From an uncultured delta proteobacterium (GTDB taxonomy: Bacteria > Desulfobacterota > Desulfobacteria > Desulfobacterales > UBA2156): a stretch of DNA of 64,000 nucleotides. The notes below the pieces were generated by a model, which was not told the DNA's origin, did no database searches, and was given only the letters and a program-made list of their open reading frames with translations. Below, one piece after another: positions 5,806 to 25,372 of the stretch. Where the stretch lies: NCBI GenBank assembly GCA_963736855.1, contig CAVTQK010000013.1, positions 32,001 to 96,000 on the forward strand, read 5' to 3'. Position 1 is the stretch's first letter, and each line of letters opens with the position of its first letter. Position numbers and translations under genes: made by a program.

Positions 5806-8783
5806 AATATTACGGCGATGGATTTTTTGCCGTCCACCCGGATGGAAAGGGGTTTATCCAATCGGACATGCCGGACGAAAGGAGTTTCCGATACGGCAGG
5901 CAAGGTATTCAGCCAGCTCCAGTCGATGAAATCCTCTCCCTCTTCGGTGACGGTCAGGTAACTGATTCCCAAGGACGTGATGTTGTGAAAAAAATGAGAT
6001 CCGTAAGACGGGTCCGCCCGAAGTTTCGAGGTTCGGTTCTCGATAAAGGATCCCACCATGGAGATGTCGTTCCAGGCCACCGGTATCCCCAGCCACCGGT
6101 CGGCCGAACCCCATCTTCCCGGACCGATGAGCAAATAGCGGCGAGCATTTTGGATCATGAATTTGTTCAACGAGCCGATCTCCCGGGCGATCTCCACCGT
6201 CCTGGCCGCATCGAAGGCATCCGGCTTGACAAAAAGAATATCTTCAATATCATCGCGCACGCCGTATCCAAGCGCCATGGACGAAAAGCAAAAGGCCCTC
6301 GAAATCTCCGCGGAGGTAATGTCCACATCCATGCGGTTCTGAAACAAGGCCATGGGCCGGATCTGGAGCAGGGTAAATTCGGGCTTTTCGGTAGCGGAAA
6401 CCGGGAAGTTGACTGCAAACTCGATTTCGACCGGGGAGGCCATTCCCTCTTCCCCCATCTTCAGCACATCGTTGAGAATTTCGGGAAGGGGAAAGGAGCC
6501 GTATTTTAAAATACCGGCAAAGGTCAACACCGGGGTCCCTTCTCCCAAGTAAGAATCCCGAATGCGATGCTCCTGTGGGAAATAGGTGCTCAACAGACTT
6601 TTCATCGTAACATGGCGGGGATCTTCGGCAAATTCCGCAATTTCAAGCTGTATCAACGAAGGGTCCTCCCCTTTCAACGCCTCTTGGGCAAAATTTTCCG
6701 GCGAATCCTTCAGTTGTATGGCAAAAAAATGTCGCTGGGCGTTTTTCAGGATGTCCTCCACTGTCGAAAACTGGGGAAGGAACTGGGGATGTCTTGGGGA
6801 AAAACGCAGAACATTCAATCCCTCCACTACGGTCTTCCCCAAACCGGCCGCGATGTGGGCGATCCCTTCATCGGCCTTTATATGACCGACGGGGTAGAAG
6901 TTGTAAGACTGGGCAACCCCGGAAACGGCGGGATAGTAATGATCGCCGCAGGTCGATCCGGTAAGCTTTTGGATCACCACTGCCATCTTCTCCTCCTCGA
7001 TCCGATGAACCGTGCTCTTGGAAAAAGAGCGCGGCGCCTCGTAGTACGTCGAAGAGAAGACGAGCTTGATGGCCTGGCTCAGATGACTCAAACGGACCCC
7101 GATATCGCTGTGATTGTTGGGCACCATGTATGTCCGGTAAAGACCGGCAAACGGTTGAAACATGGCATCTTCCAGGAGACTCGAAGAGCGGACGGCCAAG
7201 GGATAATGCGCACCGGTGAGGAACCGGCGCAGGTCATTTTCCAGCCAGTCGGGAAGCTGTCCTTTCAAAAAGAGGCTGGCAATTTCCGCATTTTTAAAGG
7301 AGCTGTCGGCCAGAGCTTTGAGGTCATTTTCCCGGATAAATTCGTCAAAGGCTTCGGTCGAAATCACCAGGGTCTTAGGAACTCCGATGGCTACATCGGG
7401 GTACTTTTCAAAAAGGCTCGCCTGTGCCTTGAAACGGGTGGCCATGAAAGCCAGCCCCCTGGCCTTTCCCCCTAAAGAGCCTTTCCCGATCTTAGCAAAC
7501 TCAGTCTCAAGATCGAACCCTTCCGAGGTAAAGTCGGCGATCACCCCTTTTTGGCGGGCAACCCGGCGATTGCGCAGGCACGCCACCAGATAATCCTTGT
7601 TCTCCCGGACGCTGGAAAAGTCGGTCACTTTGATAGGCTTGAGCTTTGCGGCCAACTCAATTTCGGATCGCGCCATCAGCCATGTGGAAAAATGATCCCG
7701 CAGGGCATGGTAATAAACCGATTCATCGGGGATCGAAGGGAGGATCCTTTCCAGGGCCAGCAGATTGGAAGCACGCGCCACCTCGGTTCCGTCGGGCATC
7801 TGGAAAACGAAGTCTCCGAACCCGAGATACTGCATGAAAAAGGAGCGGATATCCGTATGAAAGGTTGGCGAGTTCTTGTTCAGAAACAACGCCCCGAAGC
7901 CGTAAGCCTTTTCCCGGTTCTTTTCTTCCGAACTCATGATAAACAACGGAAGCTGGGGACGTTCACTCCGGACCCTGTTTATAAAAGTGAAACCGGCCTC
8001 CGGATCGAGCTTTCGATCCCTCGGAAACCGGACGTCTGACAAGACGCACAGCATATAACGCTGAAAAGACCTGAATAGATTTTCGGCATCTTCGTAGTTT
8101 AAGGCGTGCAATATCTTCGGCCGGGCGCGCATTTTTAGAATGCGATGCTCTTGATTCAAAGACTCTTCCATCACCGTCTGGGTCTGCGTCACCACTTCTT
8201 TGTATAGAAAGGGAAGCAGTGAAGAATAATAAACCGGTGAATCTTCCACCATTAGGATCACCCTGACCCGCGCCCTTTGGGTATCCGAAACCACGTTCAT
8301 CCGGTCTTCTTCATTTTTGATCATGGCTAAAAGGAGATCGGTGTTGCCTGTCCAGATGTAGGTTTTATCGATGGCATCCGGGTCTGCAGCCGGGTCGTCC
8401 ATGGGCATGCCTGTCGTGCCGTGAGTCAGGAGAAACACCGGTGTTTTCGGAAAACGCTCCTTGATGGTGCGGCCTAAATTTTTAGGCTCCATGTCCCCCA
8501 GACGGGGCATGGTCAGCACCAGATCGAATTTCTGCTGGGACATCCTGTTGAGCGCCTCCTGGGCGGTGGAGACCCAGGTCAGCCTGGGGGGACGGGTGAG
8601 ATTGAGGCCGCGGTATTCATGAATGATCCGCTCGGCCAGTCGGCCGTCTTCTTCCATGATGAAGGCATCGTAGGGGCTGGAAACCAGGAGGATTTCACTC
8701 ACCCTCTTGGCCATCAGGTCGTAATAGATTTTGAATGAAGAGTCGAACGGGTCGTTATCGTTTGAGGTAAAGATGTCGGACAT
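5793..8783 (-). CDS. PEP/pyruvate-binding (PPDK_N-type) domain protein with N-terminal receiver-like domains
   Basis: GSLGGKARGLAF, PLAVRSSSLLED..FAGLY.T, EEKMAV.IQ, VEIEFA and LLQIRPM motifs; N-terminal ILLVSS.YD and ILMVEDSP receiver-like segments. Confidence 0.85.
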   Translation of the reverse strand: MSDIFTSNDNDPFDSSFKIYYDLMAKRVSEILLVSSPYDAFIMEEDGRLAERIIHEYRGLNLTRPPRLTWVSTAQEALNRMSQQKFDLVLTMPRLGDMEPKNLGRTIKERFPKTPVFLLTHGTTGMPMDDPAADPDAIDKTYIWTGNTDLLLAMIKNEEDRMNVVSDTQRARVRVILMVEDSPVYYSSLLPFLYKEVVTQTQTVMEESLNQEHRILKMRARPKILHALNYEDAENLFRSFQRYMLCVLSDVRFPRDRKLDPEAGFTFINRVRSERPQLPLFIMSSEEKNREKAYGFGALFLNKNSPTFHTDIRSFFMQYLGFGDFVFQMPDGTEVARASNLLALERILPSIPDESVYYHALRDHFSTWLMARSEIELAAKLKPIKVTDFSSVRENKDYLVACLRNRRVARQKGVIADFTSEGFDLETEFAKIGKGSLGGKARGLAFMATRFKAQASLFEKYPDVAIGVPKTLVISTEAFDEFIRENDLKALADSSFKNAEIASLFLKGQLPDWLENDLRRFLTGAHYPLAVRSSSLLEDAMFQPFAGLYRTYMVPNNHSDIGVRLSHLSQAIKLVFSSTYYEAPRSFSKSTVHRIEEEKMAVVIQKLTGSTCGDHYYPAVSGVAQSYNFYPVGHIKADEGIAHIAAGLGKTVVEGLNVLRFSPRHPQFLPQFSTVEDILKNAQRHFFAIQLKDSPENFAQEALKGEDPSLIQLEIAEFAEDPRHVTMKSLLSTYFPQEHRIRDSYLGEGTPVLTFAGILKYGSFPLPEILNDVLKMGEEGMASPVEIEFAVNFPVSATEKPEFTLLQIRPMALFQNRMDVDITSAEISRAFCFSSMALGYGVRDDIEDILFVKPDAFDAARTVEIAREIGSLNKFMIQNARRYLLIGPGRWGSADRWLGIPVAWNDISMVGSFIENRTSKLRADPSYGSHFFHNITSLGISYLTVTEEGEDFIDWSWLNTLPAVSETPFVRHVRLDKPLSIRVDGKKSIAVILTKS

Positions 8784-8946
8784 CGCGTTATCTTTGTGTT
8801 TTTAAAAAAACCACCATCTCGTTTTATCTTTGATTGGACAGGCTGTTTTGTCAAGTCATTATTGGGTGTTACAATTTTTTCCGGCGCCTTGACAAAACAA
8901 AACCAACCGGTGTAGCCTCAGGCCATATGGAAAAAGGAAACCGGAT

Positions 8947-10633
8947 TTGAAAATCGGACTGGCGCAAATCAATCCCGTCATCGGGGACTATCCCTGCAAC
9001 GCTGAAAAGATCGTCGCTTTTGCCGACCGCGCGAGGGGTATGGGTTGTGATCTGGTGGTTTTTCCGGAACTGTCCCTTTGCGGATATCCGCCGCGAGACC
9101 TTCTGGAAAAAAGGGATTTCGTGGATGCCGGACTGGTTTGCCTCCATCGACTCATCGAATCGATACGAGGCATCGGGGTCATCTGCGGTTCTGTAGATAA
9201 AAATCCCAATCCGGGTGGAAACGCTCTTTTCAATTCCGCCGTCCTGTTCGAAGACGGAAAGCGTTTGCACCAGGTGCAAAAACGACTCCTGCCCGTCTAT
9301 GATGTTTTTGACGAGCGGAGGCATTTCGAACCGGGAACAAGCAACGAAACTTTTTCTTACAAGGGACGCTGCATCGGAATTTCCATTTGTGAAGACGCTT
9401 GGAACGATAAAGATTTTTTTTCAAGGCGGATCTATTCCGCCGATCCGGTCAGCCAGTTGGTGGAAAGCGGGGCGGATCTTCTCGTCAATATCTCCGCCTC
9501 ACCCTTTTTCATGGGTAAAAACCGTTTCCGCTCGGAAATGTTGGGCTCCATCGCAAAAAAATACGGCACCTGGTTGATCTACGTGAACCAAGTGGGCGGC
9601 AACGACTCCGTTTTATTCGACGGCTTAAGCTTCGCCCTCAATCCCTCCGGTGCCTGTGTCGCGGCCGCCCGGGACTTTGCGGAAGACCTCGTCGTCGTGG
9701 ACATCGACAAATGCGGTGGAGATATTCATCCGGTCTCCGACGACGATATAGAAGCTGTCCGGAAAGCCCTGGTCATGGGAACCGCCGACTATGTGACCAA
9801 GTGCGGCTTTTCCAAAGTGATCCTCGGTTTAAGCGGCGGGATCGACTCGGCCCTGGTGGCCTGCATCGCCCAAGAAGCCCTGGGAAAAGAGAATGTCACC
9901 GCCGTCTTCATGCCCTCGCGCTACACCTCCAAAGACAATTTCGAAGACACCCGGGCACTGGCGGAAAACCTAAATATTGCATGGATTGTGCATCCCATTA
10001 ATCCCATATTCGATGCCTTCCTCCCCGGCATATCTCCCCATTTCGACCCCGGTCGGCCCGGCGTCACGGAGCAAAACATCCAGGCCCGGATCCGGGGAAC
10101 GCTTCTCATGGCCATTTCCAACCGGGACGGCGCCATGTTGCTTTCCACTGGAAACAAGTCCGAATTGGCCATGGGCTACTGCACCCTCTACGGCGACATG
10201 AACGGCGGCCTGGCGGTCATTTCGGATGTTCCAAAAACCCTAGTTTATCGGCTAGCCAGACGGATTAATTCCGAAAAAGAGATTATACCCGAACGGATCT
10301 TTGAAAAAGCCCCGTCTGCAGAGCTATGCGCCGGACCAAAGAGATGAAGATGACCTTCCCCCATACGAAACCCTGGATCCCATTCTCAAGGCTTACATCG
10401 AAGATCAAAAAAGCGCTTGTGAAATGATCAAAATGGGGATGGATTCAAAGCTGGTGGAGCGTGTGATCCGACAGGTGGATCGGAACGAATACAAACGGTA
10501 TCAGGCCCCTCCGGGGCTGAAAGTTACTTCCAAGGCATTCGGATACGGGAGAAGATTCCCTATCGCCCAGCGCTATAAACTTACAGGTTCAAAAGAATAC
10601 CAGTTTCCCGAAGCTCCCGGAACATCTTCTTAA
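8947..10633 (+). CDS. nadE: Glutamine-dependent NAD+ synthetase, split by a 1-bp frameshift near 10326 (likely sequencing error)
   Basis: Nitrilase domain (FPEL, ICEDAW), GLSGGIDS, TGNKSE..GY.TLYGD. The PSAEL|.PDQRDEDDLPPY motif continues in the 10301..10633 frame. Confidence 0.9.
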
Positions 10634-10649
10634 CACTCTAAGAAAAAAT

Positions 10650-11033
10650 TCGGTAATCGTCTATGAACCCGGATATCAGTTCGGATTTTCGGGAATAAGC
10701 TAAGGCTTTTTATAAAAATGTCTCAATTCTGACCAAGAAACTTATTTTCTCTCTTAAGACGCCCCAGCTCTTCATTGGAGGGCTTGGAACGCTCCTTACT
10801 TGAAAAGAATTTTTCACCTTCTTTTTCCAGCTTGTGCTTTTATCGGCCGATTACCCTAAGCCCTGTACTCCAGTCTCGTTCAATCCCGGCCTCTATGTAG
10901 CCTTGCTCCGAGGCCGGTCAAAAAGCCTTTCTCAATGCTAAGATATTTCTCGTATCATTTCCCCTGATGGAACACCTCCTATTGTTTCATACAAGTTGGC
11001 TATTCGGTGTGTCCACGGTTTTAGAAAAGGCCA
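10650..11033 (-). mobile_element. Decayed IS3-family remnant (left end and orfA pseudogene)
   Basis: Minus-strand translation ASEQGYIEAGIERDWSTGLRVIGR*KHKLEKEGEKFFSSKERSKPSNEELGRLKRENKFLGQN*DI resembles IS3 OrfA (HTH plus EL.RL.REN leucine zipper). AGGAGG RBS; 5'-TG...AAAACCGTGGACAC left-end-like sequence. Confidence 0.65.
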
Positions 11034-11056
11034 ATTATTTGAAAATGAATCTAATG

Positions 11057-12895
11057 CTACTGATTTTGAATATTCTTATTTGCTTGGCCCGAATGATAAT
11101 GAATTATTATTGCGACGACGAACAACGGCAATGTCTGCACGGTCAAACGGTTCCATGCAGCCCCGATATGCCACCAGAGATTTTTATGGTGAATGATAAT
11201 AAAAATATAACCCGAAAGCATTGCTAAAGGTAATAACATATCTATACGCTGATATTTATTTCCCTTTACAAAATACACAGCGACAACCAATCCTATCAAA
11301 CCCATCGCTACATTCCATTGCTTGATATCCATCCACATGTTGCCAATGATCATCAGTGCGTCCGGAATTCGCTTTATAGCATTCAGTATCACCCCGGGAT
11401 GATATGTTATCACCTTAGTCGCATTAGATTCTAAATCGAGTACCACCCGAGTCCACAAATACCAAGGGGCATACAGGAATAAACAACATACCATATAACA
11501 ACAAACCGTTTTCATTCTTAGCTTATTATAAAATGCAAGCGCCCACAAGAAACCTAAAACAGCGAATAGGAATCCCTCATTTTTAGTATATGCAGCACCC
11601 ACAGCGAATATTGATGCCAGAACCATGCTATTTATAGTATTTTCATCACGCCAACGAAGCAGGCAACCGAAGCTGCAAATAATCATCAGGGAAAGCGCGG
11701 TTTCCGCATAAGACCATGAAGCAACTAGCGGCACCATCGGTATTGAAAGAAAAAATATTGCTCCGAACAGTGCATATTTGTTTTGTCGTGTTTGACGCTG
11801 GATAATGACACCGATCTCCCAAGCTGTTAAAAGCATAAACAGCACACTCCAGCCCCTGCTCCAGTGCTCTTCCCACCCACCCGAGCACCAGCCTGAAAAA
11901 GCCCAAACAGTTGGCCAGAGAAGAGGATAATCGGAAGCCCCAAAGTAGATCACATTTTTCAGGGCCCCCTCAGTGAGTGCAAGAACTTTTGCCTTTGCAC
12001 CCCATATGGCCCAAGCATCCCAATCATCTGGAACGGTGACTACAGCCATTTCCATTGCCCACAGAGAGATGAAAAATCCTATCGAATAAAGCAACAGCGA
12101 GAAGGTGAGGTTGGATTTTTTTTGAAAATAAAATAACTTCGAAATTAAAACGCTTTTAACTATCGAGATATTCAGATATTTTTTAAAGTCTATTAATCCA
12201 TAAAATGCTTTTTTCAAATCAAACCCAATAGTTATTTTTCTCAGTTGGTTATACAAAAAAGATACCCAGCCTGCTACCCCTCCCCACGCGTATAATTTGA
12301 AACCGATGCCTGGACTTTCGAAGACGCCCATCGAGATCAAAGTGCTCGACATCAATAAAAAACAAGATATCCCGATCATTTCGGGAACGCTGATTGGTGA
12401 CAATGACCATAAAGACCATAACCATCGAATATTAAAAGCGATACCGACAACGCAACATACCGAAATTATTAACCCAAAAACGTTCGGTTTTTCAGGATAG
12501 GTTCTATTTACCGGCGTGGATGATGAAACTCCCTGATAGAGCACCTTGGAACCCTTAACGCTTATGGCATAACTGGTCGAACCGGAAGGAATACGGGGTA
12601 TGAGCAAATATGTTCCATAAGAAAGAGTATTATGATCGCCTTTGGCTTTATAATGAATATTCATTGGCCAGAATGTATCGATTTCTATAAAATCTTTCAG
12701 AGTTTCAGAGGGAATACCTGCCCATTTGAATACATTTATTCTTTGTTCATTTATGCTTTTACCCAAGTACCATACTCTTTCCCTGTTCCACCAAAGCCGC
12801 TGCATTTGGAACAGCGCTGCCACCGTAATTAGAATCCATAGTAAAATAAATAATCGAGCAGCCAGTGTTGAGAGGCTGTTTTCAAAAAATTTCAT
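11057..12895 (-). CDS. Multi-pass membrane protein, GT-C-fold glycosyltransferase-like (PMT/ArnT-related)
   Basis: About 13 hydrophobic segments; WDAWAIWGAKAK, DYPLLWP, YAE and TKNEG motifs; visibly lower GC than the flanks. Confidence 0.6.
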   Translation of the reverse strand: MKFFENSLSTLAARLFILLWILITVAALFQMQRLWWNRERVWYLGKSINEQRINVFKWAGIPSETLKDFIEIDTFWPMNIHYKAKGDHNTLSYGTYLLIPRIPSGSTSYAISVKGSKVLYQGVSSSTPVNRTYPEKPNVFGLIISVCCVVGIAFNIRWLWSLWSLSPISVPEMIGISCFLLMSSTLISMGVFESPGIGFKLYAWGGVAGWVSFLYNQLRKITIGFDLKKAFYGLIDFKKYLNISIVKSVLISKLFYFQKKSNLTFSLLLYSIGFFISLWAMEMAVVTVPDDWDAWAIWGAKAKVLALTEGALKNVIYFGASDYPLLWPTVWAFSGWCSGGWEEHWSRGWSVLFMLLTAWEIGVIIQRQTRQNKYALFGAIFFLSIPMVPLVASWSYAETALSLMIICSFGCLLRWRDENTINSMVLASIFAVGAAYTKNEGFLFAVLGFLWALAFYNKLRMKTVCCYMVCCLFLYAPWYLWTRVVLDLESNATKVITYHPGVILNAIKRIPDALMIIGNMWMDIKQWNVAMGLIGLVVAVYFVKGNKYQRIDMLLPLAMLSGYIFIIIHHKNLWWHIGAAWNRLTVQTLPLFVVAIIIHYHSGQANKNIQNQ

Positions 12896-13089
12896 ATCAG
12901 CTTCAACGCTCTTTCCATTGATTTTTAAAAATGCGATAAGTTAAACGGATATTCTAGAACCCACCGTTTCCTTTTTTAAAGTGTTTCTCTGTTAGTTTCT
13001 CTGGTTTCTATTCACTTTCAAAATGAAGATTTTCTCTGGAAAGAATCGTTTCATCAACCCATAGCATTCGTTTCATATCGCCTTCAATG

Positions 13090-14331
13090 TTACCCCAACC
13101 TGCCCATGGGCATATGGTTTCGGGAATCCCTTTTATGATGAATTCGCCAGCGATAGAACAGTGAAAATGGTTTCATCATAAAATATAACGAAAACAAATA
13201 ATTCGGTAAGTTGACGGTCTCCCAATCATCATGGGACGGGCCGATCTGATAAAGAAAAAACTTTAATTTATAATTCAAATCGCTGCGCAAACTAAAATCA
13301 TACAATTTTTTTTGGAAATACTCCCAAGATACGGGTATGTTAGGATGATCATTCAATGATTGGATGCGATTCCAAGCAATTCTGACCAGATAATTCACCA
13401 CCTTGTCCCGTTGAACATATTTTATCACTTTACCGGGCAAAGGACAGTCCAGCAATAACGCTCCCAAGATTAACCCTTCTGCTATCATTCTCGAAATACC
13501 CATCTGATTTGAATGATCCATTAACTGATCCCAATCAAATCCTGATTCGTTACCCACAAGGTATGCCACATCAGTCAGCCAAAATAATCTTGACCAGCCA
13601 TGAAGCGTTCCGTGAACACAGAGAAACATCAAGGTGTGTTCAAGAGAAAAGGTGGGAATGCTGACTCCGCCGATCGGAACTATCCGGTGTCCATTCCAAG
13701 CATTTTCAAATCTCAGGGGGAAAAGGGAAGAAAGGTATACACAACGGTAATGAAGCTCCAGGTAAATCCTTTTTTCTCGACAAAAATATCCAAAGTGACT
13801 AAAATTCCTCATGAAAAAAGTTTTTTGACGAGCAGTTAAATGAAAATCGGGCAGGATTCTGGTATAGCCCGCTTGATGCAGAAATGCTTCTGCATGCTCT
13901 ATATGTTCCTCTGGAATCAAAAGGTCCAGATCTCCTACATGGCGTGACCCCAAGTCCCCAAAGGTGATAAGACCTAGAACCGGTCCTTTGAATGCAAGAG
14001 CAGGGATACACCTTTGGTTAAACCCTTTCAAAATATAAGCCAGCTCCGCTGCTTTTAAGACATTTCGCCGGGTATTATTTTCGACACGCTTTCTTAATCG
14101 TGACAGCACGAAAGACGGGATTCTATTACCGAATCTTTTCATTCTCTTGTATACCAACGCAGCTACTCGGTGTTTTTCAACCAAGTTTAAAAAAAGCTCC
14201 CAATCAATTTTTATGGGATTTTTTAATTCCAATTCTTTATGCCCATTTTTTCTCAAAGAAAACCTGAGACAGGATAATACGAAATTCATTTCTGGAGACA
14301 TTCTTAAAAAACTGCCTGTATTGTTATCCAA
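13090..14331 (-). CDS. Nucleotidyltransferase family protein (NTP_transf_5 type, lasso-cluster associated)
   Basis: IDWELF...EKHRV, FKGP.L......LG.R..GDLDLL, ELH, LCVHG..HGWSRLFWL.D motifs. Confidence 0.85.
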   Translation of the reverse strand: MDNNTGSFLRMSPEMNFVLSCLRFSLRKNGHKELELKNPIKIDWELFLNLVEKHRVAALVYKRMKRFGNRIPSFVLSRLRKRVENNTRRNVLKAAELAYILKGFNQRCIPALAFKGPVLGLITFGDLGSRHVGDLDLLIPEEHIEHAEAFLHQAGYTRILPDFHLTARQKTFFMRNFSHFGYFCREKRIYLELHYRCVYLSSLFPLRFENAWNGHRIVPIGGVSIPTFSLEHTLMFLCVHGTLHGWSRLFWLTDVAYLVGNESGFDWDQLMDHSNQMGISRMIAEGLILGALLLDCPLPGKVIKYVQRDKVVNYLVRIAWNRIQSLNDHPNIPVSWEYFQKKLYDFSLRSDLNYKLKFFLYQIGPSHDDWETVNLPNYLFSLYFMMKPFSLFYRWRIHHKRDSRNHMPMGRLG

Positions 14332-14351
14332 AGCACCCCTTAATTAAATTT

Positions 14352-14433
14352 GATGAAATCGTAAAAAGACTGATTTTTCTGCGCTGCAAGTCTTTTCGAA
14401 GATCGAAAGGGTTTCGCTAAATCTCAAGAACTC
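14352..14433. mobile_element. Partial MITE copy
   Basis: AAATTT followed by GATGAAATCGTAAAAAGACTGATTTTTCT..., matching the reverse complement of the 5640 copy, then breaking into an AT-rich tract. Confidence 0.65.
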
Positions 14434-14939
14434 AGACAAGTGTAACAGTTAGATTTTTAGCTATTTGTTTTTTTGAAAGATTGAATGGTATAAATTTTTA
14501 TGAGCATAAATTTTATTTTTTTAATTTAACAGTTACTAGAAATTTGTAATGCATATGAGTAAATTACTGCTGATTTAAGGATTTATTAATTTTAAATTAG
14601 AATAATTAAATAGTTAAAGAATAAATGTTGTTGTAAGAGTTTGAATTTTGAAAATAGACAGCTAGTTGTTGAATAGATAAGAAATATAATATATTTATAT
14701 GTTAGAGAAATATATTGTTTTAAATGGAATTGGGAAGACAAGAGGATAGATAATACTATTTAGTAATGTTATATAGAAGCTGTAAATGCAATCCGCAGAT
14801 CCATCGGTTATTGATATAATTATATGCGATAAGTTATAGACTGTAACTTGTTTTAAAATTAAATATTTATATAATAAATGTGTTAAAAAATATTTTTAAT
14901 AATAGTAAAAAAATTTTATATTTAATGAATAAAATTCGA

Positions 14940-15778
14940 TGAAAGACCTACCCTGATTTTGTAATCCGGGGCATTCCCCGGGTCATGGAAGAAGACGATG
15001 AGACCGGGTGGCACAGGCATGGATGATTTAAGGACCCACGTCTTGTTGACGAGCTCTGTGTTCACGCGGGTATGCTCAGCGGTTTTGTGTCGCCCCATCC
15101 GCCTCATTGCCATGAGCACGAAGAGCTGCACATCGCGCTTTCGGAAAATCTTGAGATTGTGGACCGTGATGCGGACTTTGGCGTTGAAAAGACACTCCTG
15201 GTCGACAAGGGCGCATTGTTGTATATCGATGCAAGGATTGCCCACACCATGCGAAATACGGCATCCGGGCCTGCCGATTATTTTCACGTCAGATGGAAAA
15301 ACGCATCTACGATGTTTCCTTCGGAAATAAAAAACAATTTTTATTATTGCCCCGGCAACCGAAGCAGAGAGTTCAAGCAGTCCACGCGTGACGGCTCAGA
15401 AACCATGGAGATATATTCCGGGCTTCGCGGTACCTGCCGCGCTTGAGGGCGCTGTTTACAAGGGTTTTTCCCGGAGGCATGATTCCTTTTCATCGACATG
15501 CCCATGAAGTGATCTTCCTGTTCATAAGCGGTTCCGTCGAGATCCTTGGGAAAAAGCTGGAGGCTCCGGGTTTTGCTTTCATGGGAACCCAGGTGCCTCA
15601 TTACATTGTCAATCACGGACCAGCGCCCGCTGAATACTACGCATTTGAGCTGCACGGGAGGCATAAAGGTTTGCGAGAAAACGAGCAAAGTCCTTTTGAA
15701 CTCACCGAGTTTTTTTTCCGAAACAGAGCATGCTCTACCGCGCCTACGGCCTCTCATTTTCGTCCGAGGTACCCATAG
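14940..15778 (+). pseudogene. Bicupin protein, frameshifted
   Basis: Two cupin motif pairs, PHPPHCHEHEE...AHTMRN and PFHRHAHEV...PHYIVN, spread over ORFs 15072..15446 and 15443..15778 plus upstream frames. Start uncertain. Confidence 0.7.
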
Positions 15779-16616
15779 CGCATTTCCCGGGGGCTCTCAG
15801 TCCCGGAGATCCGGATGTGCGTATCAGGCGGGGCGAAATATTCGGCCCCGGGTATACGCCTCCTGCCTCGATCCGGATCGAGGCATCGCCGGGAAGAATT
15901 CTTTTGCGCGGGGCGAGAAGCGCACAATTCTCGTCACCGGCGGAAACTCTATCACGATAGAACCGCTCCCGAACGGAAATCGCGCAACCATCATGCAGAT
16001 CCTTCTCGGCTGGGCGCTGGGCGGCCTGTTCCATCAGAGAGCATGCTCCCACTGCACGGCAGCGCTCTCTGCCGGAATGATGACTGTTTCGTCTTCTGCG
16101 CCCGATCAGGCGCAGGCAAATCGACCCTGGCAGCGGCATTCCTCAACCGGGGTTTTTCATTTCTCGATGACAACATGCGCTTGAGATTTTGAGACGGCAT
16201 GCGTTATAGCACCGGGGTCTCCGGAACTCAGATTATGGGAAAGCGCAATGCCTGCTCTCGAGTTCGAGTATGAAGCAGCGGGCCGCATAAGACCCGACAT
16301 GGACAAGGTCTCGATTATCGCCAGACGTAAATTCAGAAGCGAGAAAGCTAGGCTCAGGAAGATATTCATATTGAGAAGAAGCAATGAGCCGGCGGTCTCT
16401 TTCTTAAATGTCACAGGAGCGGCAAAATTGCAGGCATTGCTTGAAAATGTTTTCTTTATTAAATTAATGAAGTATGATGGAAACAGCGCCGGGCTGTTCC
16501 ATCTCGTCCATGGACTTGCGGAGAGAGCGCCGATTGTGGAAATCAGGCTTCCAGGCAGACTGCCGCCGCCTGATGCGCTGTGCGATATCATTCTCGGCGC
16601 TCGTGTGATGCAGTGA
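15730..16616 (+). pseudogene. HPr-kinase-like protein (PadeK-type lasso kinase family), multiple frameshifts
   Basis: MLYRAYGLSFSSEVP start; ILLGWALGGLFHQR; LPLHGSAL.....VFCARSGAGKSTLAAAF..RGFSFLDD (His, Walker A, DD); P.LRLW and IRPDMDK, across three frames. Confidence 0.8.
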
Positions 16617-16630
16617 GGGAGGACAATGGC

Positions 16631-16906
16631 ATGAAAGAAATGACACTTGATACGGTCGTGAAAAAAAATGACGATATATTTACGGGCAGTATCGACAATG
16701 AGATGGCGGCGATGAGTATTCAGAACGGCAAGTATTATCAGATGAATGAAACCGGTTCGCGCATCCTTGCCCTGCTCGATCATGAGCGTTCCATAAGGAC
16801 TGTCGAGTTGATGTAGGTTTTTCCGGATTGACGGCCTGTCTGCAGGCAGGATGTCCTCGATTTCATGCGGAAAATGGCGGAATACAATTTGATATCGACG
16901 GTGTGA
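16631..16906 (+). pseudogene. PqqD/RRE family protein (lasso B1-like), frameshifted near 16800
   Basis: GGAGG RBS; DNEMAAMSIQNGKYYQMNETGSRILALLD, then in another frame CRQDVLDFMRKMAEYNLI. Confidence 0.85.
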
Positions 16907-17199
16907 TCGGTAGATCTTTCTCAATGTGCCGAGCCGATATTGCGGTGGAGATTTGACATGTGCTATTGTTTGTATTAAACTTTACATAATTAAAAAGATG
17001 AAGGTGTTAGATGAAAGAAACCTAAAGCGGCAGAATTGTGGATAAAATTAGTAAGAACTAATAATACATAATTAGTTAACTTCAATTTGACACTTGTATA
17101 GTTATATAGGAAGATATATGTTAAGCTTTTACAAAGTTTAAGAATGATTAGATGCTAAATTATTGAGTTTATAGCGCTTCTGATACACATAGTTTAGAA

Positions 17200-18350
17200 T
17201 ATGAAGAATGTTTTAGAAAGAGTTGGGGGGGGCATCTCCTTACCCTCCATTCGATAGCGAAAGGGTTCTTGCAGCAAGGGTGCGAAGTCATCCTGCTATG
17301 CCGGGACACCGAAAGGCTCAGGGTGTTTTTTCGGAGATAGGTGTCGCCGTTGAACCGATCTCCCCCTTGGCCGCCCCGCGATACAGGTTTTTCCCTGAAT
17401 TATGCACAGAATCTGTGGCGAAACGGCTACCGAGACGCCGAAAGTTCAGCGCCCATTTCACGTGGTGGTCGGACAGATTCAGGGCCCTGAAGCCCGATTT
17501 CGTTCTCACGGATTACGCCCCCACCGCCCTCGTATCCGCTTTATCCCTCGGCATCCCGAGGGGCGCAACCGGCACAGGATTTACTCTTCCCCCCATGACC
17601 ACTCCAATGCCATGCCTGCATCCATGGCTCGAATCCCCTAGTGAGGCGCTTTCCGAGGCCAAGGACATGGTTCTCGATACGATCGGACGCCATGTGCCTT
17701 CCCTGCACTCTGTGGCCGGCATTTTTGAGGGGGCCGCACGGTTTTCGTGGTATTTCCCGAAATGGACCATTTTGAGATCCGGACCTCGGAAAAATATTTC
17801 GGACCTGTTTTTGGATCGGCATCTTACCTGAATTCACTTGGCCTGAAGATTCGGGACACCGGGTTTTTCTTTATCTCAGCGCAGCCAACCGCTGTCTCGG
17901 TGATGTGATGAACCATATCAGGAGACTCGAGCTTCCCTTGATCGGGCACATCAAGGATCTTCCCAATCCGATCGAAAGGCCATGGAATCGCCAACACTCA
18001 GACTGAGCGGTACCCTCATGAACCTGGACCGAGCAGCCGCTGAATGCAACATCGCGGTAACGCAGGGGGGCCTTCACACGAGCGCCGAATGCTCCTTTCC
18101 GGAGCCCGCCTCTTGATCTGCCCAGAGCAGCTCGAGCAGACGCTTCTTGCCTATCGGTTGAAGCAGAGGGGGCTCTGTGAATTCGTGAGTTTTTTCAGCG
18201 AGGCAAACACAGTAAAGGATAGATTCGAAACTGTAGCGTATTCAGCGGAACTTGGAAAAACCGCGGTGGCATTTTGCATCAAAATACGCCGAATATAATT
18301 CAGTGGATACGGTCAGAGAGATTGTCCGGACATGTCTCAATGTAATGTAA
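17200..18350 (+). pseudogene. GT-B glycosyltransferase (UDP-glycosyltransferase-like), multiple frameshifts
   Basis: ELGG.H start remnant, PDFVLTDYAPTAL...GTGFTLPP, FPEMDHF, WPE..G.RVFLYL and PEQLEQTLLA segments, across frames. Confidence 0.7.
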
Positions 18351-19381
18351 TACCCAACATCAAAGAAAGGATAAGCCCGGACTGTCTGACGGTTTATCCA
18401 GCGGAGGCGAGGCTTGACGTATCCAGCCGGTGCCAGCTTGACTGCCCGCTCTGTCCCGTCGCTTCAGAAGAAATGGACGACCTTTTGTAGGCCGCGGCAT
18501 CATGCCTTTCGCTGACTTTGCTGAATTCATTGACAGTAACCCACAGATTCGAATCATCGAGCTGGGAAACTCGGGCGAGGTCTTTCTGAATCCCGATCTG
18601 CTCTGCCATTCTGGGATACGCCAGGGAAAAAGGTGTGGCAATCCGTATCGCAGAGGGCGCCAATTTGAATGACGCCTCCGATGAAGCCCTGGAGGCCCTT
18701 GTCCGATATGGCGTCATGATTTTGAGAGTGGCTTTAGATGGGGCCACCCAGGAGACTTACCGGATATACCGTGTTGGCGGAGAGCTTAAAAAGGTGCTGA
18801 GAAACGTGGAGAAGATAAACGCGTATAAAAGGGAGTATGGAAGCAAACTGCCGCGCCTTATCCTTCAATTCATCCCCTTCCCGCACAATGAGCATGAAAT
18901 AAAAAAGATCGCGGTCCTGGCCCGGGCATTGGACATGGAGATTGATTTCAAGATCAACGTATTCCATGGATATTCCCCTTTGCAGAATGATGGGGAACTC
19001 ACCAAATGGCTCGACTATTCAGATAAGGCTTCCTATCTGGAAAAAACCGGTAAAATATACATGAGGGACATCTGCCTTCAACTCTGGAGATCCCCCCAGA
19101 TCAACTGGGACGGAAGGCTTCTCGGATGCAGTGGCAATAAAACCGTCTCCTATGCCGAATATGCCCTCGGCGATGCATTTGCAAGGGAGATCAACAACGG
19201 GCATATCCAGTATGCCAGAAAGATGCTCATGGGAATCGCGCCTCAGCGTGACGACATTCCCTGCTCTGTCTGTGATTCATATGCGGACTACCGGAAATAC
19301 GACCAATGGTTCACGGTTGAGGAGATCAGGGCTGCCATGGAACGCTGGCGAAAGCAGGTGCCTGAAAATTATGAACACTGA
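18332..19381 (+). pseudogene. Radical SAM protein with C-terminal twitch/SPASM-like Cys, frameshifted (paralogue 1)
   Basis: RLDVSSRCQLDCPLCP (CX3CX2C) at ~18410-18460; ELGNSGEVFLNP; LDGATQETY..YRVGG; C.QLW.SPQINWDGRLLGC...PCSVC. Confidence 0.85.
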
Positions 19382-20366
19382 TCTTCTTACGATCAATCCG
19401 GTTAAGGTCCGGCTCGATATATCCACTATATGTCAGCTCAAATGTCTCCTTTGCCCGACGGAAGAAAAAAACGGCCGGGCCTTTCTTAAGAGCGGGACGA
19501 TGGCTTATTCCGAATTTACCTGCTTCCTTGAACATAATCCGCAAATCGAAATGGTCGAGCTGGCCAGTGCCGGTGAGGCCTTGCTCAACCCTGACCTGCC
19601 GGAGATATTGAAAAGCGCATCCGAACGGGGAGTCGCAACGAGCCTCGGAGGCGGGGTCAACATGAACGACGCATCTGATGAGGCCCTCGAGGCCCTCGTC
19701 AGGTACAAGACGACCCGTATCCGGGTGTCTGTTGACGGCGTCACCGAGAAGACCTATCGGAAATATCGCGTCGGCGGAAGTCTTCACAAGGTATTGGCAA
19801 ACATTAAAAAGATCAATGAATTTAAGGAGAAGTATCAATCCGAATTTCCAGAGATTCTCCTCCAGTTCATCCTTTTCGGACACAATGAGCACGAGCTTGA
19901 AAGGGTCTTTGTTCTGGGCAGGATGCTGAAAATGAATATCTTCATCAAATTAAACCGATGTCCGGACCGACTTGCCGTCAGGGACAGGGAGAAAATCCGG
20001 AAGCTCTTGGGTTACGCAGACAGAACAGAATTTATTGAGTCGATGGGAATTCAATACTGCCGCGATCTCTGTCTCGGACTCTGGAAGGCCCCTCAGATAA
20101 ACTGGGATGGGAGACTTTTGGGATGTGGAAGCAACACAAGCATTGCCTTTGCCGAATATGTGCTTGACGGAGCATTTCTCAGAGAGATAAACAACGAGCG
20201 GATGCAGTACGCACGAAGGATGCTCCTGGGAGAAGCGCCTCCCCGGGATGATATTCCGTGCTCCGGTTGCGCCTTCTATAATCAGATTTCGGAACATGAC
20301 CTTTGGTACACTCCGGAAGAGATAAAGGCCGCAATATTAAAACACGCAGGATGCGAGGAATCGTGA
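19371..20366 (+). CDS. Radical SAM protein with C-terminal twitch/SPASM-like Cys (paralogue 2)
   Basis: CQLKCLLC motif, GEALLNP, SVDG, C.GLW.APQINWDGRLLGC...PCSGC; start at ATG 19371 overlapping paralogue 1. Confidence 0.9.
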   Translation: MNTDLLTINPVKVRLDISTICQLKCLLCPTEEKNGRAFLKSGTMAYSEFTCFLEHNPQIEMVELASAGEALLNPDLPEILKSASERGVATSLGGGVNMNDASDEALEALVRYKTTRIRVSVDGVTEKTYRKYRVGGSLHKVLANIKKINEFKEKYQSEFPEILLQFILFGHNEHELERVFVLGRMLKMNIFIKLNRCPDRLAVRDREKIRKLLGYADRTEFIESMGIQYCRDLCLGLWKAPQINWDGRLLGCGSNTSIAFAEYVLDGAFLREINNERMQYARRMLLGEAPPRDDIPCSGCAFYNQISEHDLWYTPEEIKAAILKHAGCEES

Positions 20367-20384
20367 GGCCCTGAAAAAGGTATT

Positions 20385-22340
20385 TCATCCTCCCCTTTCC
20401 GGTCCGTCTGTTAACCCCGCGACAAAACGCCCCGCCATGACGCCCCTCAAAAGGAGCGACGCTGCCCTTTGGGAGGTCCGGGGGGTCACCGCGGCCTGGA
20501 GGTCCTTCCAAGTCCCTCGCAGCGCGTTTACATCCACATAGGCCGCAACCACCCGGTGGGAGGCCAGGGCGGCCAGATCATTTTCCATTTCATCCCGGCA
20601 ATCCAGAAGTCGGAAGGCTGCGTCAGCCGCCTGCCTGCCGCGGATGCTGTTTCCCCACACCTCCTCCGGGAGGACGCCCGCAAGGGATCGACGCAGAAGC
20701 ATCCGTTCCCCGCCGTTGCGGTTATGCTGATCGTCTGGGACGCCGAGGCAGAAGGTGATAAGCCGAACATCCGCTGTAGGATCAAGCACTTCCATCCGGA
20801 AGGCAGTGCCAAAATGGTGATGGATATACCCCCCCGGGGCGTTCAACTCGATGGTCTGTCGACGTTCCCATGTAGGGGTCCGGGGGCGTGTAAAGGACGA
20901 ATCGTGACTCTCGGCTTCCATGATCTCCCGCAGCCCTATGCGCCTCGCAAAGTCCGGATGGATCGCACTATATTGCCTCCACGGCGGTTCCATGGGGCGC
21001 ATTAATCGTCGTCTCCAGTACCATAATTGGCCAAGGAGGGGACTCAGCAGATGCCTGCAAATAGCCCCGTACCATGAAAAGCCCTCTCTTTCCTTCAAGG
21101 CGCGAAGAGCCCGTAACCCTTCGTCCCAGCGACCCTGAACCAGAAGAAAGAATATCCGGTGCCGCCCACCGCTCCAGGAAACCCCGCCGTTTCCCATCTG
21201 CCCCGTCAGGAGAACCCCGAGCCCCTTCCGTTGAGCCTCGTCATGTATTGCCTGAATCCAGTACAGGTTAACCGCCGCATGGAGGGGATGACCGCATATG
21301 CGAAGACCGTCATGGATTGCCCTAAGAGGGGAGATGCGCTCGGCACGGACCGAGACATGTTCGATATTGTTATACTTTTTCGCCACGGTGTGGGCCAGGG
21401 ACCACTCGTCTGCCAGGGCGCCGGGAACCAGATGCGCCGCCTGATAGAGGGGAACGGATGTAAAGGCCGAGAGGGTTCGATCCTCGCTTTGAAGGGCCTC
21501 CGCAGCAAGGGCAGTGACGGAACTCGAATCGAGACCTGCGCTTAGCTGGGATCCGACAGGGCGGTTGGCTCTGAGGCGCACGCGGACGGCCCGCCGGAAA
21601 TGGTCGAGAAAGCCGTCGAGGTACTCTTCATCGGAGGCGAGACGGACGGCCGGGGCATCCTCCATGCGCCAGTATTTGCTTAGTTCCAGGGCCTGAGGTG
21701 TCACCGCCAGTTGATGGGCAGGCAAAAGCAGACGCACGTCTTCCCAGAAGGTGTGGGCCCGCTCAGCTTTCTCACCGGGGAAGATGGCGAGATAGCGGGC
21801 GAGCCGCCATTCGTCCAGGCTCCCAGAGAACCCCGGCAGGGCCAATATGGCTCGGGGGGTCGAGGCAAAGGCAAAAAAAGGGGGTTTGTGGCAATAAAAA
21901 AGCCCCGTATTGCCCAGATGATCCCGGGCAATGAAGAGGCGCCGCTCCCGCCCATTCCAGGCGGCAAAGGACCAGTCGCCGAACAGGTGCTCCGGAGAGT
22001 CTTCCCGCCAGCGGAGAAAGGCCAGAGCGACGAGGCGGCCATCGGCGACGGTGGGCCGCTCGGGCGTAGGGATGTGGAAAAGGCCGCAGAGTTCCTCCCT
22101 ATTATCGAGCCGGGTGGCAGCGGTGATGAGAATCCCCGAATCGAGGTCCTCCCAGGGCATCCTTTCATAACTGGCTTCCGGCGTGGCGGAGAGGTGGGTA
22201 TATCCCAGCATGGCGGACTTCCTGATCACGTTAACGACACCGTTAGGTCCCCAACTTGCCATAGCTTTCGTCATGGCCTGCACATACTCCGAGGGTACCG
22301 GCTTGCCGTCGAGACAAATCAATCCAAAAATGCCGCTCAT
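20385..22340 (-). CDS. Asparagine-synthetase-like protein, probable lasso cyclase (isopeptide-bond-forming) family
   Basis: Starts MSGIFG (Ser replaces catalytic Cys2); RLDNREEL, GDWSFAAW, ARDHLG, LSAGLDSS PP-loop, LLTGQMGN, R.LLRR....LPE. Confidence 0.85.
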   Translation of the reverse strand: MSGIFGLICLDGKPVPSEYVQAMTKAMASWGPNGVVNVIRKSAMLGYTHLSATPEASYERMPWEDLDSGILITAATRLDNREELCGLFHIPTPERPTVADGRLVALAFLRWREDSPEHLFGDWSFAAWNGRERRLFIARDHLGNTGLFYCHKPPFFAFASTPRAILALPGFSGSLDEWRLARYLAIFPGEKAERAHTFWEDVRLLLPAHQLAVTPQALELSKYWRMEDAPAVRLASDEEYLDGFLDHFRRAVRVRLRANRPVGSQLSAGLDSSSVTALAAEALQSEDRTLSAFTSVPLYQAAHLVPGALADEWSLAHTVAKKYNNIEHVSVRAERISPLRAIHDGLRICGHPLHAAVNLYWIQAIHDEAQRKGLGVLLTGQMGNGGVSWSGGRHRIFFLLVQGRWDEGLRALRALKEREGFSWYGAICRHLLSPLLGQLWYWRRRLMRPMEPPWRQYSAIHPDFARRIGLREIMEAESHDSSFTRPRTPTWERRQTIELNAPGGYIHHHFGTAFRMEVLDPTADVRLITFCLGVPDDQHNRNGGERMLLRRSLAGVLPEEVWGNSIRGRQAADAAFRLLDCRDEMENDLAALASHRVVAAYVDVNALRGTWKDLQAAVTPRTSQRAASLLLRGVMAGRFVAGLTDGPERGG

Positions 22341-22787
22341 AAAAATGCTCCCTATACTACACACTTTGCTTTAAATCTAGGCAATACTACATGCTGGAGT
22401 TCACGGCAACATTCTTCGAGGAAAATTTAGGAGGAAATGGTATCCAGTCCAAATCCAAAGGAGAGGCGCGTCCAAAAGGGGTTTTTCCCACTTCTTAAGT
22501 CTCCTTAAAGGCCTTTGCGAATCCCATGTAGAGAGGTAAATCAACATCGGTAGACTTCGAACCCCAGTAAAAAATGTAATAAAAATGAAAGTCCAAAGTT
22601 TCACGCATAATTTGTGTTAACTAGTTAATATCATTTAATAAACTATAACAGACCTGCTTAACGGCAATATAATATTACCGATTTTGCGCACTACCGATTT
22701 TAAAGAGTCGGTTGAGCAGGATCTCCCTTTTCTGACCCATCTTTTCTTGACTTACCGGGTCTGTTAGCTTAGAAAATAGATTTTTGC

Positions 22788-23333
22788 GTGGGAGTAATTG
22801 GGGGCAATGGTTTGACCATGGGCATATGTCGTTTTCACCATTTCCGGTTTTTTTGCGTACTGATCGCCTCTGTCTGGACTTGGGGGCCTTTATCGGCGCC
22901 ATCGGCCTTTGCCCAGAAAACGGTCAACCTTTATTTTATGGATCCTTCGGACACCCACCTGACTGCTGAAACACGTCAGATCCCCGAAATAGAAAGGATT
23001 GAACAGTCGGCCCGTGCCATCCTGGAGGCGCTCTTGACAGGCCCCCGACAAGGTCTTGTCCGCGCCATCCCTGAAGGCCTCTCGTTGCGGACACTCTTTT
23101 TGACCGAAGAAAAAATTGCCTATGTGGATTTTCAAAAGAACCCGGATTCCCACATGGAAAGAGGCGTTTTATCAGAATGGCTGGCTGTTTATTCCATTGT
23201 CAACTCCCTGGTTCTCAATATACCGGAAATCGAGTCGGTTCAAATCCTCATTGACGGCCATGAGGTGACAACCTTTTCAGGACATATCGATCTGACCGGT
23301 CCATTCAAAGCGAACATGCTGTTGGTCCGATGA
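22788..23333 (+). CDS. GerMN domain protein
   Basis: LYF...L.AE.R, LL.GP, AYVDF, YSIVNSL..., VQILIDG....T..GH motifs. Confidence 0.85.
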
Positions 23334-25372
23334 AAAAAACAAGCAACATTAGCCGAATCCGAAATATCGGGATCATCGCCCACATCGATGCAGGAAAGAC
23401 CACCGTCACCGAACGGATTCTCTTTTATACCGGTCGTTCCCACAAAATGGGGGAGGTCCACGACGGCGAGGCCATCATGGACTGGATGCCCGATGAGCAG
23501 GAGCGCGGGATCACCATCACCTCTGCTGTGACCACCTGCCAGTGGAAGGACGCCGACATCCATATCATCGATACGCCGGGACACGTCGATTTCACCATCG
23601 AGGTCGAGCGCTCCCTCAGGGTTTTAGACGGGGCGGTGGGTGTTTTCTGCGCCGTTGGAGGTGTTGAACCCCAGTCGGAGACAGTCTGGCGCCAGGCCGA
23701 TAAATACCGGGTCCCCAAAATCGCTTTTGTGAATAAGCTGGACAGGATCGGTGCGGATTTCTTCGGAACCGTCGAACAGATGAAGCAAAAACTGCACGCC
23801 GATCCCCTTGTCCTTCAGCTCCCCCTGGGTGTCGAGGAAAACTTCCGAGGTGTTATCGATCTTGTGCACATGAAACAGATCGTCTGGGACGACGACTCTT
23901 TAGGTGCGTCCTTTACCGCCGATGAAATATCGGACAACGACAAAGAATCGGCGCAACTTTACAGAGAAAACATGATAGAGAAGTTGGCCGAAATCGATGA
24001 CACCCTCATGGAAGCCTATTTATCGGATGCGCCCAGCGATTCCATTTCCACGGAACAGATTCTTTCCGCCATCCGGAAAGCGACGGTGAATCTGAAGCTT
24101 ACGCCGGTTTTATGCGGCAGCGCACTACGGAACAAAGGGATCCAGCCGCTGCTGGATGCCATCGTCTCCTTTCTCCCGAGTCCCATGGATATCCCGGCCG
24201 TCAAAGGGGTGCACCCGGAAACCGGAGAAACCGTTACGTTTCCTCCCGACGATAAAGCACCCTTAAGCGCCCTCATCTTCAAAGTCTCCATCATGGAGGG
24301 GAGAAAACTCTCCTTTGTCCGGGTCTACAGCGGAAAACTCGTCGCGGGACGGGAGATTTTCAACCCCGGGCGCCGCGTCAAGGAAAAGCCTGCGCGGATC
24401 CTGATGATGCATGCCAACAAGAAGGAACGGATCGAGGAGGCGGGAGCGGGAAACATCGTAGGCGTCGTGGGCCTGAAAGACTCGTCAACCGGGGAAACGC
24501 TGTGTACCTCGGAGCACCCGGTTCTTTTGGAAAGAATGGAATTTTATGAACCGGTGATTTCCGTGGCCGTGGAACCCAAAACCCATTCGGACCAGGAACG
24601 TCTCGACCAGATCCTCGATAAGTTCTTGACGGAGGATCCCACGTTGCGGGTTCATAAGGATGAAGAGACCGGGCAGACCCTTCTTTCCGGGATGGGGGAA
24701 CTCCATCTTGAAATCATCATCAGCCGGATGGAACGCGAGTTCAACACCCAGGTCAATGTGGGAAAACCCCAGGTCGTATATCGGGAGAGCATCGAATCTA
24801 TTATCGAAGGATCAGCCGTTTTTGATAAGGAATTCGGGGGGCAGCGCCATTTTGGTGAGGTTCGGCTCAAATTGAAACCCTTGCCCAGAGGTTCGGGGAA
24901 CCGTTTCATGGCAGATGTCTCTGAAGAGGCGATCCCCGCAATCTACATTCCGGTCATCGAAAAGGCGGTGATGGAATCGTTTCTCAGCGGCGTTCTGATG
25001 GGGTATCCGGTGGTCGACGTGGAAGCCATACTCATCGGAGGTTCCCAAAAAGAATCCTTGGGATCGGATCTGGCTTACACCGTCAGTGCTTCCATGGCCT
25101 GCAAGGAGGCCCTCTCAAGAGGCAATCCCTTCCTCCTGGAACCCATCATGTCTGTAGAGGTGCTTGTACCCGAAGGATTTACAGGAGATGTCATCGGAGA
25201 TTTAAACGCCAGGAACGGGAAAATTGAGGCCATTCGACCCAAGACCGGATACCAGGCCATCCGGGCCATCGTCCCGCTGGCGCACATGTTCGGCTATTCT
25301 ACGTCTCTGCGTTCAGCCACCCAGGGCCGAGGGACCTTCACCATGCATTTTTCTCATTTCGATCGATGCTGA
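23330..25372 (+). CDS. fusA: Elongation factor G (stand-alone paralogue)
   Basis: [44 protein letters not shown] motifs. Confidence 0.95.

Follow-up and report, generated by a model that had tools for sequence, protein, structure and literature searches.

The question raised by a 64,000-nt stretch of contig CAVTQK010000013.1, from an uncultured deltaproteobacterium of the order Desulfobacterales (the whole stretch is called here the window), is what would be produced by a locus in which enzymes of lasso-peptide maturation lie together with two radical S-adenosylmethionine enzymes (rSAMs), a cupin and glycosyltransferases (GTs). An earlier reading of the letters alone (the sequence-only reading) had offered a heavily tailored phospho-glyco lasso peptide or, as a second option, lasso enzymes repurposed for envelope glycoconjugates, and had suspected an undescribed RiPP (a peptide that is ribosomally synthesised and then modified post-translationally). 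The comparisons presented here indicate that a lasso-peptide cluster intact in other bacteria is present here in a damaged copy, and that its product is likely a peptide. Judged by its genes, the cluster is of the paeninodin/pseudomycoidin type with an added module comprising a GT1-like GT, one or two twitch rSAMs and usually a bicupin; that it is a lasso cluster with a dedicated module is highly probable. The first option is supported by the co-occurrence of the gene set elsewhere, and the locus encodes a variant of a known RiPP class instead of an undescribed one.

Intact relatives, cyclase and precursor

A metagenome scan with an alignment of the rSAMs gave 274 confirmed stretches, and the relatives described below were drawn from the best 80 of these 274, with further loci coming from genome searches (G003, G010, G518) and from a scan with the cyclase (L022). 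The order cupin–kinase–RiPP recognition element (RRE)–precursor–GT-B–rSAM–rSAM, facing a convergent cyclase gene, is common to L047, L049, and L050, with the second rSAM 72–88% identical. The leader peptidase B2, an ABC exporter, and a nucleotidyltransferase are all encoded in L049, L059, L031, and L062, and both B2 proteins tested (L049, L031) exceed the NF033537 cut-off; the RRE is intact in the orthologous clusters. The recurrence in other genomes that the sequence-only reading proposed to look for was thus found, together with the B2, ABC, and precursor genes that it had missed in the window. The module is rare: in a set of 400 other genomes of the order, two have close rSAM matches, with two distant matches in addition, and GT matches occur in 2 of 400 genomes of the phylum, one of them with the module. 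Two contigs of 70% G+C also carry the module, L061 with one rSAM and a cyclase, and L063 with cupin–kinase–RRE–precursor–GT–rSAM (6590–10948), a single rSAM, and neither cyclase nor B2 within 10 kb.

The Asn-synthetase-like protein begins with MSGIFG, with Ser in place of Cys2, and keeps SAGLDS, as the sequence-only reading had it. It scores 351 bits against the lasso cyclase family NF033535 (cut-off 525) and 132 bits against AsnB TIGR01536, below both cut-offs. In the phylogeny, lasso-type cyclases stand apart from 20 Cys2 proteins with a support of 100, so the window protein, lacking Cys2 and any grouping with AsnB, is not placed with polysaccharide amidotransferases of the AsnB type. A search of 401 genomes with NF033535 at 1e-60 proved too loose, as 194 genomes matched, mostly through AsnB; 20 of the loci with higher scores were retrieved, of which 19 were examined. 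Next to the closest cyclase from outside the module (65%; L020, 3500–5610) are genes for a GT2, an adenylylsulfate kinase-like protein, and a protein in which PqqD is fused to a TylF methyltransferase; this is another tailoring variant. Elsewhere, at G000:C15:144747-147042, a PqqD–HPr-kinase fusion and a second NTP_transf_5 gene lie between remnants of insertion sequences (IS), with no cyclase or B2 nearby.

The precursors of the module clusters form a family with a W-x2-P...T-x leader and a core of 13–16 residues ending in D-x3-Y-S. This ending is found in 15 of 15 distinct module precursors, all of which have Ser as the last residue, and in none of 11 control lasso precursors (ten end in Ser, one in YS). 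In this count L047 and L022 also stand for their near-duplicates L048 and L059, and one of the 15, that of L187, turned up after the motif had been set. The controls came from 24 examined loci, none with this GT, cupin or rSAM clade. No precursor was obtained from ten of these, and four were AsnB loci with Cys2; to the remainder the second cluster of L059 was added. Two controls were picked by eye, and the L020 contig is only 7.5 kb long. The Asp lies at core position 8–9 in 12 of the 15 precursors and at 10–11 in three, and one precursor has Ser at −2; lasso precursors usually combine a W/Y-x2-P leader and Thr at −2 with a ring-accepting Asp/Glu at core position 7–9. The paeninodin-family cut-off NF033524 was passed by one of five precursors tested. 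Since the nine module-bearing cyclases among 22 do not form one clade (approximately unbiased test, p 5.5e-5; the group was defined by gene content, yet after the FastTree tree had been viewed), the D-x3-Y-S tail follows the module rather than the cyclase.

Tailoring enzymes and the proposed pathway

The rSAMs have their CxxxCxxC motif at residue 15–34, leaving no RRE domain on these proteins, and C236, C254, C299, and C302, which would bind one auxiliary cluster, are present in 97–100% of 93 aligned rows. In a quick tree of these 93 rows, a single clade with a Shimodaira–Hasegawa-like likelihood-ratio support (SH-aLRT) of 99.6 unites the 30 rows of 21 lasso-type loci to the exclusion of the 63 others, and the same clade has 100/100 in a careful tree of a 38-row subset; on five short contigs among the 21 loci, the only neighbour seen was a GT or a cupin, or there was none. 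The window-type and the G003/G010-type rSAM pairs are separate clades, hence the duplication happened at least twice. The best folds matching the rSAM model (pLDDT 93) are BlsE (Z 20.2), SuiB (19.5), and SkfB (19.4), in effect a tie, and among the matches listed BtrN gives the sole alignment spanning both the core and the twitch domain. BtrN and BlsE are enzymes of the sugar/nucleoside type, SkfB and SuiB act on peptides. Like the module rSAM, BtrN and BlsE (PDB 4m7t, 7vob) are of similar size, have a core with one auxiliary cluster, predicted in the module enzyme, and lack an RRE; however, all four proteins share only 13–17% identity with it, and their reactions are therefore not transferable.

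Up to three same-strand neighbours on each side were scanned in 22 long non-lasso rSAM loci, and in ten of these a GT, a glycan-type gene or a bicupin lies beside the rSAM, two being rSAM–cupin fusions. Fusion proteins of rSAM and the same bicupin are encoded in L068 (9674–11860) and L101 (9971–11875), both without lasso genes; the protein upstream in L068 was considered as the GT and rejected. Outside the lasso clade, an rSAM gene also lies beside an Asn-synthetase-like gene in L125 (1503–3506), and beside PqqD, methyltransferase, GT2, and nucleotidyltransferase genes in L083 (4096–8022).

The GT-B enzyme is GT1-like (YjiC, OleI-type, CalG) by its features, predicted fold, and PDB profile, its intact orthologues show similarity to EryCIII/UDPGT, and His16 is present in 14 of 14 rows covering this position. 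The wider family is large (2,542 representatives at 1e-30), with fusions to TPR and sulfotransferase domains among its members, and a distant relative is flanked in L188 (86–3851) by two SapC genes and by a different rSAM. In the bicupin a His/Glu metal site is invariant, and modelling of its intact orthologue from L049 gave matches to bicupins. The kinase, 61–81% identical to that of L047, matches TIGR04352 below the cut-off and retains the P-loop and DD motif. The nucleotidyltransferase is 48–54% identical to the copies in G001, G003, and G010, and 22% to that in L049.

In the pathway that we propose, with a probability of about 0.5, a lasso peptide of 13–16 residues would be phosphorylated, glycosylated, and then modified on its sugar. 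By analogy with paeninodin and pseudomycoidin, the kinase would phosphorylate the C-terminal Ser, the RRE and B2 would strip the leader, the cyclase would join the new N-terminus to the Asp, mostly at position 8–9, the nucleotidyltransferase would enable hexose addition on the phosphate, and the ABC protein would export the product. The GT1-like enzyme, with His16 as the base, would act by O-glycosylation, likely on the penultimate Tyr, which is invariant, or alternatively on the phospho-sugar. Action on the Tyr phenol would explain why this residue is fixed only where the GT is present, and a glycosylated Tyr is known in cacaoidin. The twitch rSAMs and the metal bicupin would then remodel the sugar, whether by C–H oxidation, by epimerisation or by dehydration, and the very short five-residue tail would be locked in the ring by the bulky groups at the C-terminus. 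Such locking fits pseudomycoidin, which in its unmodified form is a branched cycle and for which sugars were proposed as the lock (PMC6993621).

Several observations weigh against this pathway. All the cyclases score below the NF033535 cut-off, and the 15 precursors, which stem from some six lineages, lack independence. Provided that the Thr(−2) rule applies, the Asp lies at core position 10–11 in L047 (2568–2756), L040 (15588–15776), and L060 (26–217). The rSAM fold leaves the substrate undecided, with BlsE, SuiB, and SkfB tied and Foldseek putting the peptide enzyme SuiB first, and in 12 of the 22 non-lasso rSAM loci the neighbours include neither a glycan gene nor a cupin. The nearest folds of the bicupin (UGlyAH, AerE, BacB, oxalate decarboxylase) are not sugar enzymes and point to no clear function, the cupin is absent from L022/L059, and no genes of a nucleoside diphosphate-sugar pathway were seen in the clusters. 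Finally, the window copy could be dead, as real decay occurs in the genus, where the G003 cluster is broken and G001 holds only a B2 remnant.

The main rival, which we regard as unlikely, keeps the lasso cluster and directs the rSAMs at the peptide itself: the Tyr would be cross-linked to the ring, or the Tyr–Ser end modified, with the stand-alone RRE presenting the precursor and glycosylation being a separate step. The Tyr is indeed invariant only in the module clusters, the rSAMs are a lasso-specific clade, and in the fold searches SuiB and SkfB, which modify peptides, score level with BlsE. However, the rSAMs carry no RRE, the ring residues are not conserved and so offer no fixed cross-link partner, the rSAM is accompanied by the GT in every locus long enough to judge, and rSAM relatives are fused to the cupin in loci without a precursor. 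Whether the radical chemistry took place on the lasso or on an attached sugar, a lasso sub-class with a D-x3-Y-S tail and a dedicated rSAM clade can be put forward only tentatively. If it is real, the five-residue tail, too short by itself, would be stapled or capped (by a Tyr glycoside or cross-link, plus a glycosyl-phospho-Ser), the knot would be held by modifications and not by side chains, and some members might close rings of 10–11 residues.

That the enzymes build a cell-envelope glycoconjugate with no peptide product is very improbable: GT-C relatives are widespread and found in glycan loci, G001 retains three GT2 genes, the nucleotidyltransferase, and GT-C without a cyclase, and distant GT-B relatives are fused to TPR/sulfotransferase domains or lie beside SapC, but a conserved precursor adjoins GT-B in 15 loci, genuine B2 and ABC genes occur in complete clusters, the cyclase is without Cys2 and stands apart from AsnB, and the B2 remnant makes G001 look like a case of loss. 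The second option of the sequence-only reading is not supported for the arm from cupin to cyclase; it may fit the left arm, as in G001, or the GT-C gene alone. Two homologues of the GT-C-like protein match PMT or PMT_2. Among the loci examined, G000 and G003 alone have its gene next to a lasso cluster; in G001 it occurs where no cyclase is present, and in G127 within a glycan locus. A core role for GT-C was rejected, with only two module loci having it, and the gene is probably a bystander outside the lasso module.

The window copy and its damage

The eight proteins named by the sequence-only reading are all present where it placed them (Table 1). The cyclase, nucleotidyltransferase, GT-C-like protein, and second rSAM are intact, and the genes of the cupin, kinase, RRE, GT-B, and first rSAM are broken. 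They lie on a 12.1-kb island inserted between nadE and gerMN, which adjoin each other in five of five same-genus genomes; DNA of G005 matches the window up to 10580 and resumes from 22715, and thereby sets the limits. No convincing direct repeats were found at the island ends, and no Rfam match within it. The host is presumably a sulfate reducer, judging from genes which we take to be sat/qmo/apr-like.

Table 1. Features of the island in the window
Feature	Position	Strand	Evidence
Island	10581–22714		nadE/gerMN adjacency in relatives; limits of G005 match
GT-C-like membrane protein, 612 aa, intact	11057–12895	−	no Pfam match of its own
NTP_transf_5 nucleotidyltransferase (PsmN-like), intact, GDLD (DxD) motif	13090–14331	−	PF14907, 187 bits
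Multi-copy repeat, ca. 120 nt	14341–14470		43 blastn matches in own genome
Very AT-rich stretch, 23–26% G+C; apparent gap of ca. 3–3.5 kb	14471–14950		X1 contig; L049 layout
Bicupin, frameshifted, start lost; H-x2-H-x-H-x2-EE metal motif	14950–15660	+
HPr-kinase-like kinase (PadeK/PsmK type), frameshifted	15700–16616	+	P-loop, DD motif
Stand-alone RRE (B1/PqqD), two in-frame stops	16613–16910	+	PF05402
Precursor slot: apparent corrupted relic of lasso precursor gene, and GT-B start	16987–17228	+	L047 alignment
GT1-like GT-B glycosyltransferase, in pieces	17190–18350	+
Twitch rSAM paralogue 1, frameshifted	18332–19381	+
Twitch rSAM paralogue 2, intact; CxxxCxxC plus C-x17-C...C-x2-C; no N-terminal RRE	19371–20366	+
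Putative lasso cyclase (macrolactam synthetase), intact, 651 aa, Ser2	20385–22340	−	NF033535, trees

The breaks in the window are probably an assembly artefact. Contigs of four public sequencing runs were compared with positions 8800–23400, the extra bases discussed here being among the indels listed, beside which 42 more exist. A contig of run X1 spanning 14892–22667 is without the window's extra bases at 15980, 17361, 18276, and 18600, and a second X1 contig is without that at 10328, near which a frameshift splits nadE (8947–10633), a gene with an open frame in five of five relatives. Run X2 also lacks the extra bases at 17361 and 18276, and X4 that at 18600. When indels and substitutions were counted between the window and L047, with L049 as the outgroup, 22 small indels private to the window were found in 15021–18602 and one more at 20378, against three private to L047, with the substitutions about equal on both branches (140 and 146, respectively, in cupin–RRE). 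Indels without an excess of substitutions indicate consensus errors.

The sequence-only reading had cautioned that no B2, ABC exporter or canonical precursor was visible and that several genes were frameshifted, which is correct for this assembly; the absence does not extend to the intact orthologous clusters, where all three are present. Some 3–3.5 kb appear to be missing at 14471–14950, most likely by an assembly error, and would have held the genes of the ABC exporter and of B2; both fill the 3.0 kb from cupin to nucleotidyltransferase in L049, at the place where the gap lies in the window. The X1 contig (11,451 nt) continues for 3,513 nt beyond window position 14892 with DNA unmatched in the window, and the adjacent repeat shows high depth and a contig break in this run. 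The precursor slot has 240 AT-rich nt in the window and 372 nt in X1. Its alignment with the precursor region of L047 scores above 300 of 300 shuffles; with other loci the score was reached by 16 (L046), 27 (L050), and 171 (L049) of 300.

In the assembly of the same organism, which is 100% complete, PF13471 gave one weak match only, in an unrelated 490-aa transglutaminase; this C24 protein sits in an ABC operon and was rejected as B2. A tblastn search of the genome with three B2 proteins gave zero matches, hidden Markov models (HMMs) run over 85,619 short segments revealed no intact precursor, and a genome-wide regular expression returned nine matches, none convincing. A second candidate precursor at 22440–22490 on the minus strand (KKWEKPLL) was discarded, having no Asp/Glu core and no Pfam, NCBIfam or precursor-HMM match. 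That the cluster genuinely does without B2 was likewise rejected, as the complete relatives carry it.

A separate matter is whether the island is truly decaying in its own genome, which seems improbable. The RRE has in-frame stops, B2 was not found in the complete assembly, copies are broken in G003 and lost in G001, and X1 comes from a slightly different strain (0.60 of words shared, ca. 6% divergence in 14892–16987). Nevertheless, the damage consists only of indels confined to 3.6 kb, with substitutions equal on the window and L047 branches, and the adjoining nadE, open in the relatives and lacking the extra base in X1, is frameshifted as well. In the same genus, the G003 cluster (L040, L189 = G003:C8) is fragmented in GT-B and the cyclase, and its B2 is separated from the nucleotidyltransferase by an IS256-like transposase. 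In the G001 locus (L194 8965–15884, G001:C115), the nucleotidyltransferase and GT-C occur with three GT2 genes and an S26-like peptidase, and the other strand carries a short remnant of B2, whose persistence makes the locus an apparent loss of the lasso module.

Comparison with known lasso systems

No lasso cluster with GT1, twitch rSAM, and cupin is described in the available parts of the literature searched (including PMC9266682, PMC4289311, PMC11912497, PMC10288494, and PMC6993621), though a bioinformatic mention in co-occurrence tables may exist, and rSAM tailoring of a lasso peptide was found neither there nor in the accessible text of a 2022 review of lasso modifications. For anaerobes such as Geobacter, Pelobacter, and Desulfobacca, Letzel et al. 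2014 (PMC4289311) predicted lasso clusters containing an HPr kinase and a sulfotransferase, with no rSAM, GT1 or cupin mentioned in the part available. The davasins (PMC11912497) are likewise glycosylated by a dedicated enzyme, but IgtG is a membrane GT2 acting on Ser, whereas the module has a soluble GT1-like GT-B together with a kinase and rSAM, and its glycosylation is predicted. The paeninodin system with PadeK (PMC9266682) shares the kinase, RRE, B2, cyclase, and C-terminal Ser, the one orthologous precursor passing NF033524 being in agreement with this; as described there, it is without nucleotidyltransferase, GT, rSAM, and cupin.

The psmCAKB1B2ND cluster of Bacillus pseudomycoides, responsible for pseudomycoidin (PMC6993621), is also closely alike: it too has a cyclase, B1 and B2 in split form, a kinase of the HPr type, a PF14907 nucleotidyltransferase, and an ABC exporter, and its precursor likewise ends in Ser. 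The module clusters differ in adding the GT1-like enzyme, one or two twitch rSAMs, and the bicupin, in the core of only 13–16 aa with its five-residue D-x3-Y-S tail, in the Desulfobacterota host, and in the cyclase gene, which is often convergent with the operon. The intact, compact clusters L049, L031, and L059 are suited to expression, for which the window copy is a poor template, and the invariant Tyr–Ser tail provides a direct mutational handle. The pseudomycoidin study left undecided whether PsmN is itself a glycosyltransferase or makes the substrate for a host GT (PMC6993621); as the module clusters encode a PsmN-like enzyme together with a GT of their own, this question becomes testable in them.

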